Below are positions 57,148-57,899 of a DNA stretch of 64,000 nt, one piece after another; within the stretch, counting starts at the first letter, position 1, and the number at the start of each line of letters is the position of its first letter. Under the pieces are notes generated by a model. The model saw nothing but the letters and a program-made list of their open reading frames with translations, was not told the origin of the DNA and did not search any database. Source of the stretch: Candidatus Aenigmatarchaeota archaeon (GTDB lineage Archaea > Aenigmatarchaeota > Aenigmatarchaeia > CG10238-14 > SCSR01); assembly GCA_016181005.1 (NCBI GenBank), contig JACPAE010000004.1, forward strand, positions 5,078 through 69,077, written 5' to 3'. A program made the translations under genes and the position numbers.

Positions 57148-57899
57148 TCATTTCGAAGGCTTTCCGCCATCGCCAAGCTTCATGAATCTGCCGTCCTTCT
57201 TTATAACAGCAATGTCGGTCACAATGTCCCTTTTCTCCTTGTCCGATTTCTCAGTCTTGTCGATTATTTCCAAAGCCAAATCAGTGGCCTCCTTTTCGCT
57301 CATGCCGTCCTTCCATTTTTGGTTCAGCAACTTGTTGGCCAATGCCGCGCCTCTTCCTATGGCCTGCGCCCTCCACTCGAACAGCGTGCCCGAAGGATCG
57401 GTCTCAATCAAGTGAACCCCTGACCTGTCCACGCCTCCAAGCAGCATCGACACACCAAAAGGCCTTAAACCGCCATATTGCGTAATCAACTGCATCCTGT
57501 TTCCTATCACCTTGCCGATGTTCCAGACGTCGACAGGCTCGCTATAAGTAAGCTTGTGCATCTGCGCCCTCACCCTTATCATCTGGACCAGAACCCTGGC
57601 GTCAGCTATAAAGCCCGAGGCAACCGCGCCCATATGGTCGTCTACTTGGAATATCTTTTCTGTCGCGTCCGATACGACCAGCTTTCCCGTAGGCTTGACA
57701 GTGGCAAAAACAATGCCATCCTTGAATGTTATTCCTAGTGCTGTGCTGCCTCTCTTGACGGCCTCTTTTGCGTACTCTAACCAGGCGAAAAAGGAAACCC
57801 TTAATTCGCTACCTGGAACAAGCGGCCATCAGGCGAGAATCTACACCAAATAGCTATTACACTATCTGATTACATAGCCATCGTCCGATCATAACCCAT
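57148..57899 (-). CDS. psmA: Proteasome alpha subunit, interrupted by two BHB mini-introns (exons 57899-57872, 57838-57811, 57778-57148; 228 aa after splicing)
   Basis: The spliced product is [47 protein letters not shown]...GAVASGFIADARVL...YGGLRPFGVSMLLGG. Exon lengths 28+28+631 = 687 nt = 229 codons. The colinear reading has a TAA at 57872-57870 and a frame change. Confidence 0.85.
57779..57810 (-). other. psmA intron 2 (32 nt) within a bulge-helix-bulge motif
   Basis: Central helix CCAG (57816-57813) / CUGG (57784-57781). 3-nt bulges GUA (57812-57810) and UUA (57780-57778). Inner helix GCGAA (57809-57805) / UUCGC (57789-57785), plus a distal AAGG/CCUU stem. Confidence 0.8.
57839..57871 (-). 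other. psmA intron 1 (33 nt) within a bulge-helix-bulge motif
   Basis: Central helix CUAU (57877-57874) / GUAG (57844-57841). 3-nt bulges GUA (57873-57871) and AUU (57840-57838). Inner 9-bp hairpin AUCAGAUAG / CUAUUUGGU. The intron removes most (57871-57870) of the in-frame TAA at 57872-57870. Confidence 0.8.

Novelty: BHB introns in archaeal protein-coding genes are rare; the classic case is cbf5 in Crenarchaeota. I am not aware of a doubly interrupted psmA.
How to check it: RT-PCR or RNA-seq across 57700-57950, looking for the junctions 57872|57838 and 57811|57778. Fold 57770-57885 with RNAfold or a BHB scanner. Identify which EndA architecture the genome encodes. Run tblastn of the spliced 228-aa product against relatives to see whether orthologs are colinear or carry introns at the same sites. 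Perform in-vitro cleavage of a transcript with recombinant splicing endonuclease.
What would refute it: Transcripts that are strictly colinear with the DNA with no spliced reads. Resequencing that shows the 33- and 32-nt segments are assembly artefacts. An intact second psmA elsewhere in the genome with this copy untranscribed (pseudogene).
Basis: partly seen in the sequence, partly recalled or inferred. Interest (0 to 1): 0.9.

Follow-up and report, generated by a model that had tools for sequence, protein, structure and literature searches.

The 64,000-nucleotide stretch of Candidatus Aenigmatarchaeota DNA analysed here (the window) raises the question of how a proteasome alpha subunit can be encoded by a gene that seemingly lacks its 5' end. 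For psmA, gene callers annotate just a 161-aa tail (57148-57633) out of 236 aa, with PF00227 recorded for this fragment. The gene is located in an RNA-processing/exosome superoperon, together with Pop5, SBDS and Rrp4. A sequence-only reading of the same DNA had proposed that two bulge-helix-bulge (BHB) mini-introns interrupt the message, and that translation starts at ATG 57899. The best explanation, and one that we consider highly probable, is that three BHB mini-introns are spliced from the psmA pre-mRNA; that they form a mobile module with an adjacent LAGLIDADG gene is a less certain part of it.

Exons, introns and start codon of psmA

Deletion of the two segments in question, 57871-57839 (33 nt) and 57810-57779 (32 nt), indeed yields a 687-nt ORF of 228 aa with the canonical N-terminus, and residues 2-221 of this form align without gaps, across both junctions, to the archaeal alpha subunits 9s34_H (E 3.5e-60), 3h4p and 1pma. 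The best structural matches of the spliced product are archaeal alpha subunits (E 1e-56 to 1e-60), and the protein combines an N-terminal extension carrying YDR...FSPxGRLxQVEYA with the Ntn-hydrolase fold region (PF00227). Both introns are hence confirmed, whereas their count has to be raised to three, with a further one at 57900-57932, and the start has to be moved upstream to ATG 57956, giving 236 aa with ATG 57899 as the internal Met9. The gene model is as follows, the hyphen in each bulge marking the predicted cut.

57148-57956, minus strand: psmA, four exons, 711 nt spliced, 236 aa
57962-57967, minus strand: GGTGAT, a Shine-Dalgarno-like motif read from the sequence, 5 nt 5' of ATG 57956
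57933-57956, minus strand: exon 1, 24 nt, ATG CCT GAG ATC ATG CCG GAA TAT = MPEIMPEY
57900-57932, minus strand: intron z, 33 nt; central helix (H) GAAU/AUUC, bulges AU-U and AA-A, inner helix 7 bp, outer 3 bp
57872-57899, minus strand: exon 2, 28 nt, MGYDRTMAM and the first base of Phe18
57839-57871, minus strand: intron b (the first of the two proposed earlier), 33 nt; H CUAU/GUAG, bulges GU-A and AU-U, inner helix 10 bp, outer 2 bp
57811-57838, minus strand: exon 3, 28 nt, (F)SPDGRLFQ and the first two bases of Val27
57779-57810, minus strand: intron c (the second), 32 nt; H CCAG/CUGG, bulges GU-A and UU-A, inner helix 5 bp (GCGAA/UUCGC), outer 2 bp
57148-57778, minus strand: exon 4, 631 nt including the stop, the remainder of the alpha subunit

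The GGTGAT-ATG layout recurs in relatives, and no GGTGAT-type motif precedes ATG 57899, from which the frame reads MGYDRTMAM and then TAA. Exon 1 has its counterpart in an uninterrupted MP(E/D)... in intronless relatives, with differences mostly at third codon positions, and excision of intron z joins GAA UAT to ATG GGT, identical to the same relatives. Moreover, an N-terminal extension of 5-9 aa ahead of (G/A)YDR is present in 77/77 colinear archaeal psmA loci. Intron z could in principle stay in the RNA, with ATG 57899 serving as the translation start. No second psmA was found in the 64-kb window.

Introns z, b and c all display 4/4 H pairs and in-register 3-nt bulges on opposite strands, and cutting after the second base of the bulge at 6/6 sites leaves an uninterrupted 236-aa ORF. 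The geometry and the cleavage register that had been suggested for b and c were accordingly borne out, as was the notion of a relaxed motif, with outer exon-exon helices of 0-3 bp in every intron. The introns depart from the strict hBHBh' arrangement in precisely these outer helices (2-3 bp in the window, 0-2 bp in relatives; the inner helices of the window introns span 5-10 bp), and, the outer helices being rudimentary, the window introns are assigned to the relaxed HBh' class. Local-fold RNAfold z-scores are modest, from -1.4 to -1.9.

A relaxed BHB scanner returns approximately 7000 matches across the 64-kb window, a figure that serves as a background rate only. For a site and length fixed in advance, H plus an inner helix of 5 bp or more would arise by chance with a probability of 1.4e-4, falling to about 1e-6 for 10 bp or more; with per-site odds this low, two exact matches to frame-restoring junctions are far beyond chance. 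Combining the scanner with an ORF-joining filter in search of further introns in the window, the thousands of matches included no broken gene besides the psmA sites. The split PIN/ATPase ORFs at ~22937, tried as a further intron site, turned out to be a simple frameshift lacking any inserted stretch, and neither ARAGORN nor Rfam at gathering thresholds detected RNA genes in the window. Group I or II introns and inteins were ruled out for psmA, as the segments are 32-33 nt long, no Rfam family reaches gathering score in the window, and a TAA occurs in or just past each segment in the frame of the upstream exon.

Introns in relatives and the splicing model

Relatives had been named beforehand as the place to look for either colinear genes or introns at the same sites, and both are found: close relatives are colinear, and nine other genomes carry homologous introns at the same or nearby sites. 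In total, one to four BHB introns interrupt psmA in ten lineages (the window, L001, L002, L006, L012, L021, L023, L103, L106 and L107), and scripted removal of each lineage's intron set restores full-length PsmA in all ten. Colinear psmA was recovered in eleven close relatives and at 77 archaeal loci overall. Homologues of intron z are present in L001, L002, L103 and L106, with position-shifted versions in L012, L021 and L023, while those of intron b occur in L001, L002, L006 and L012, and those of intron c in L012 (33 nt, GCGGAU/AUCCGC) and L103 (37 nt, GCGGAUU/AGUCCGC). All psmA introns fall within the first 27 codons, at positions that slide slightly, and leave exons as small as 9-28 nt. 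The sisters L011 and L012, with 87% nucleotide identity, have zero and four introns, respectively.

The pairing is maintained by compensatory change. At site b, 97% of the cells are paired and 6/14 pairs are changed on both sides, including exon-intron pairs within H, as compared to 25-52% paired and 0-1 two-sided changes in slid controls. The central helix moreover follows a synonymous exon change (CUAU/GUAG vs CCAU/GUGG), the intron c homologues show A-U to G-C compensation, and site a compensates in the same manner (GGAC/GUCC vs GAAC/GUUC). The 4-bp H and in-register 3-nt bulges are also displayed by 22 further introns in relatives, with a single H pair mismatched in 6/22. The mini-exons of the window (24, 28 and 28 nt) encode exactly conserved residues, and differences among the ten lineages are mostly at third codon positions.

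From frame restoration, register and covariation we infer that the psmA mini-introns are EndA-type BHB introns, which would be removed by cleavage and ligation. The proposed pathway would start from a pre-mRNA in which the three mini-introns (z 33, b 33 and c 32 nt) break the first 80 coding nt. Each intron is predicted to fold as HBh', with a 4-bp central helix in which the exon bases immediately preceding the splice site pair with the intron 3' end, two 3-nt bulges on opposite strands, a solid intron-internal helix and a rudimentary exon-exon helix. Cleavage by EndA is predicted behind the second nucleotide of every bulge, and RtcB would ligate the exons into a 711-nt ORF for an ordinary alpha subunit of 236 aa. 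An unspliced message would be expected to give no more than short peptides or a shortened protein missing the N-terminal YDR/gate segment.

Outer helices of 0-3 bp, along with one mismatched H pair in several relatives, make these RNAs poor substrates for a strict enzyme. The EndA of Aenigmatarchaeota is of the single-unit alpha type (1a79, E 1.4e-34), with a Lys-rich insertion, GVQLKKGPKSAKEH, before the catalytic His, in common with the N. equitans alpha (3iey). Unit and insertion are kept in 70/71 loci of the phylum, the loci scanned being those of members other than the intron-bearing genomes. Extra EndA loops have been linked to cleavage of relaxed motifs (PMC5829648, PMC3239211). The broad-specificity enzyme that had been deduced from the weak outer helices fits this picture, in which every intron has 0-3 outer base pairs and the phylum's EndA has the Lys-rich insertion. 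Within the 64-kb window, neither EndA nor RtcB was found. A tRNA-Arg(UCU) with ~15 extra nt in the D-loop was considered as well; a BHB register could not be fitted, and it does not constitute evidence on enzyme specificity.

The neighbouring LAGLIDADG gene and possible intron mobility

Directly upstream of psmA lies a gene that was absent from the earlier description of the locus:

58012-59004, minus strand: free-standing LAGLIDADG homing-endonuclease-like ORF, 330 aa; PF14528, E 2.4e-16

The ORF contains two motifs (LGDG and FDDEG) in one chain and a C-terminal extension, with PF14528 matching in two stretches, and both motifs, with their acidic residues, are invariant in five homologues, the proteins being 34-68% identical. 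In eight genomes the gene sits between Pop5 and psmA, and it is missing there in close relatives, a patchy distribution at a fixed locus. Introns occur in 8/8 endonuclease-adjacent psmA loci vs 2/87 without the endonuclease (Fisher 4e-10; within the clade 6e-5). Three of these eight loci were found via the endonuclease alone, and introns were predicted there and then confirmed. The association extends beyond psmA, as homologues of the endonuclease gene precede carB in two further genomes of DPANN, L114 and L116, where carB has BHB introns of 22 or 23 nt. At carB in these two genomes, a search for a long BHB intron around the endonuclease ORF recovered no consistent motif, and target-site duplications flanking the gene at psmA amounted to one weak 21-nt match, in L105.

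A possible origin, less certain than the splicing, is that the introns and the adjacent free-standing LAGLIDADG gene make up one mobile module: the endonuclease would cut intron-less psmA 5' ends, while the introns would interrupt the target and be copied in alongside the gene. We tentatively extend this to DPANN, as somewhat less likely than not, in the form of a two-part mobile element of a LAGLIDADG endonuclease and tiny BHB introns. In genomes without the endonuclease, it would cut the conserved 5' coding region of an essential gene, namely psmA in Aenigmatarchaeota and carB in Woesearchaeota and Nanoarchaeota; in the carrier, the introns would split this target, and they would be transferred jointly with the endonuclease gene. 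New introns may be born from repair of the breaks that it makes, being retained only if a permissive EndA removes them. Such births at the targeted 5' coding regions are suggested by the numerous, slightly displaced insertion points. An exchange of this kind may be glimpsed in L012, the first 40 coding nt of which are identical to L002 at 40/40 positions and to its sister L011 at 31/40, with 30/31 positions of intron a shared with the L002 counterpart and the remainder closer to L011. This 5' mosaic resembles gene conversion, in a short tract and a single case.

It is also quite possible, albeit not the reading that we would choose, that the introns are real and spliced while the LAGLIDADG neighbour is functionally unrelated, the two co-occurring through ~250-bp proximity and ordinary recombination. 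Linkage is tight, one recombination tract can carry both introns and endonuclease gene, and physical linkage alone could explain the co-occurrence. Congruent with this, L006 and L012 keep psmA introns without the endonuclease gene. Distant endonuclease homologues (L110-L120) adjoin genes that look intact (radical SAM, Nre, DNA ligase and L18e), hence the endonuclease-intron pairing is not universal for the family. Furthermore, the four psmA insertion sites are spread over ~60 nt, and a typical LAGLIDADG target is ~20 bp, so the four cannot all fall in one target. An unrelated neighbour is however difficult to reconcile with the at least eight slightly different intron positions in endonuclease-bearing loci (z, z', z'', a, a*, b, b' and c), which point to repeated insertions in that context. 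Likewise, the pairing recurs at the unrelated carB in other DPANN phyla, and the catalytic motifs of the endonuclease are conserved despite 34-68% protein identity. If the two-part element is correct, archaeal BHB introns would have their first instance of collaborative homing, and intron gain in archaeal protein genes a concrete mechanism.

Other readings of the interruptions and known systems

Splicing may alternatively act as a regulatory switch that ties alpha-subunit output to EndA/RtcB, like HAC1/XBP1 with IRE1 and RtcB. The interruptions all precede the essential N-terminal segment, so that unspliced psmA RNA yields no functional subunit, and the Pop5/SBDS/Rrp4 surroundings of the gene would suit such control. 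We nevertheless judge a switch unlikely, since sister lineages manage with zero introns (L011, as opposed to four in the 87% identical L012), and intron number and position vary freely, which is better accommodated by selfish or neutral elements.

It is very improbable that psmA is a decaying pseudogene, with the 32-33-nt segments as junk and no full-length protein. The 161-aa fragment is all that gene callers find, and the spliced product is without a database record: exact spliced PsmA proteins, searched with 14 sequences from 9/10 intron-bearing genomes in a collection of 15 billion proteins, gave 0/14 hits, a result that we regard as neutral, though of no help. Decay is however contradicted by mini-exons that encode conserved residues and differ at third positions across ten lineages, by an otherwise intact ORF, by the compensatory changes that keep the BHB pairing of the insertions, and by the window containing no other psmA.

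Even less credible is that the gaps are skipped in translation, through ribosomal bypassing or frameshifting of the phage T4 gene 60 type. Intron b does follow directly on a sense codon and contains a hairpin as well as an in-frame UAA, which lends it a surface resemblance to gene 60, but the take-off and landing codons are unmatched (AUG vs AGA at b, GUA vs UUA at c), three consecutive bypasses would be needed inside 80 nt, and it is the 4-bp helix and bulge register rather than codon identity that are conserved. Finally, an assembly or sequencing artefact, which the sequence-only reading had itself raised as a concern and for which nothing was found in favour, can practically be dismissed, because both segments are 100% identical in six independent assemblies from different sequencing runs (the contig is present in SRR12113384, 385, 420, 430, 431 and 433), and nine further genomes, from unrelated projects, carry homologous introns.

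Splicing of BHB mini-introns hence remains our preferred reading of psmA. In the literature, no earlier report of BHB introns in psmA or in DPANN protein genes was found, and papers up to 2020-2025 name cbf5 and one Haloferax 5' UTR as the sole mRNA cases (PMC2738675, PMC7714728), congruent with the novelty claimed at the outset. psmA would then be the second interrupted coding gene family, and carB the third, in a different superphylum and with up to four introns per gene. The psmA introns would also offer natural mRNA substrates for studying how an EndA of the single-unit alpha type, equipped with a Lys-rich loop, deals with relaxed motifs outside tRNA. Because gene callers silently truncate such genes, completeness estimates and metabolic inferences for DPANN may be biased. 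Variation among near-identical relatives, together with the tie to a homing endonuclease, renders archaeal intron gain, loss and mobility testable.

The closest precedent is the BHB intron of cbf5 pre-mRNA in Crenarchaeota (Watanabe 2002; Yoshinari 2006; Yokobori 2009, PMC2738675), likewise a protein gene with a short EndA-type intron, often of relaxed motif, patchy among related species and mis-annotated by gene callers. The present case differs in gene and lineage (psmA in DPANN, not TACK), in number and arrangement (one intron in cbf5; up to four in psmA, with exons of 9-28 nt, all in the first 27 codons and at sliding positions), in the homing-endonuclease neighbour, and in the enzyme, which is a heterotetramer in Crenarchaeota and a single-unit alpha type with insertion in Aenigmatarchaeota. 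In Haloferax volcanii, HVO_1309 mRNA has a BHB intron in its 5' UTR, the removal of which matters for expression (PMC7714728); this case similarly extends the substrates of the splicing endonuclease from tRNA and rRNA to mRNA. That intron is however located in an untranslated leader, leaving the frame uninterrupted, and its splicing is experimentally proven, whereas splicing of psmA is deduced from sequence.

In structural terms, the nearest relatives are tRNA introns of the non-canonical HBh'/BHL type in DPANN and Thermoproteales, cut by broad-specificity EndA types (PMC5829648, PMC3239211). These share the 4-bp helix, the 3-nt bulges, one weak or absent flanking helix, similar sizes and an EndA with an extra loop; psmA mRNA, in contrast, offers no tRNA body for recognition, and its frame must be restored nucleotide-exact.

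For the putative mobility, a parallel is provided by collaborative homing in cyanophage S-PM2, where free-standing F-CphI neighbours psbA and its group I intron (Zeng, Bonocora & Shub 2009; see PMC6083498). In both settings a free-standing endonuclease gene neighbours a conserved gene, and an intron devoid of an endonuclease would protect against self-cleavage and be mobilised as well, with which the presence/absence pattern and the conversion-like 5' tract of psmA fit. The psmA-type introns are however protein-spliced BHB elements of 22-37 nt, not self-splicing group I ribozymes, and the endonuclease is of LAGLIDADG type, in archaeal hosts rather than phage, with several introns per target. 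Archaeal rRNA BHB introns encode LAGLIDADG endonucleases, such as I-DmoI, and thereby unite BHB splicing with LAGLIDADG-driven DNA mobility in archaea; there the ORF resides inside a long rRNA intron, whereas the psmA introns are too small to encode one and the ORF is located outside the gene. Lastly, in the eukaryotic, stress-regulated splicing of HAC1/XBP1 by the IRE1 endonuclease and an RtcB/Trl1 ligase, a tiny mRNA intron is likewise released by a protein endonuclease at stem-loop or bulge sites and the ends are joined by a tRNA-type ligase, altering the frame of the product, although with another endonuclease, in a eukaryotic host and under stress regulation.

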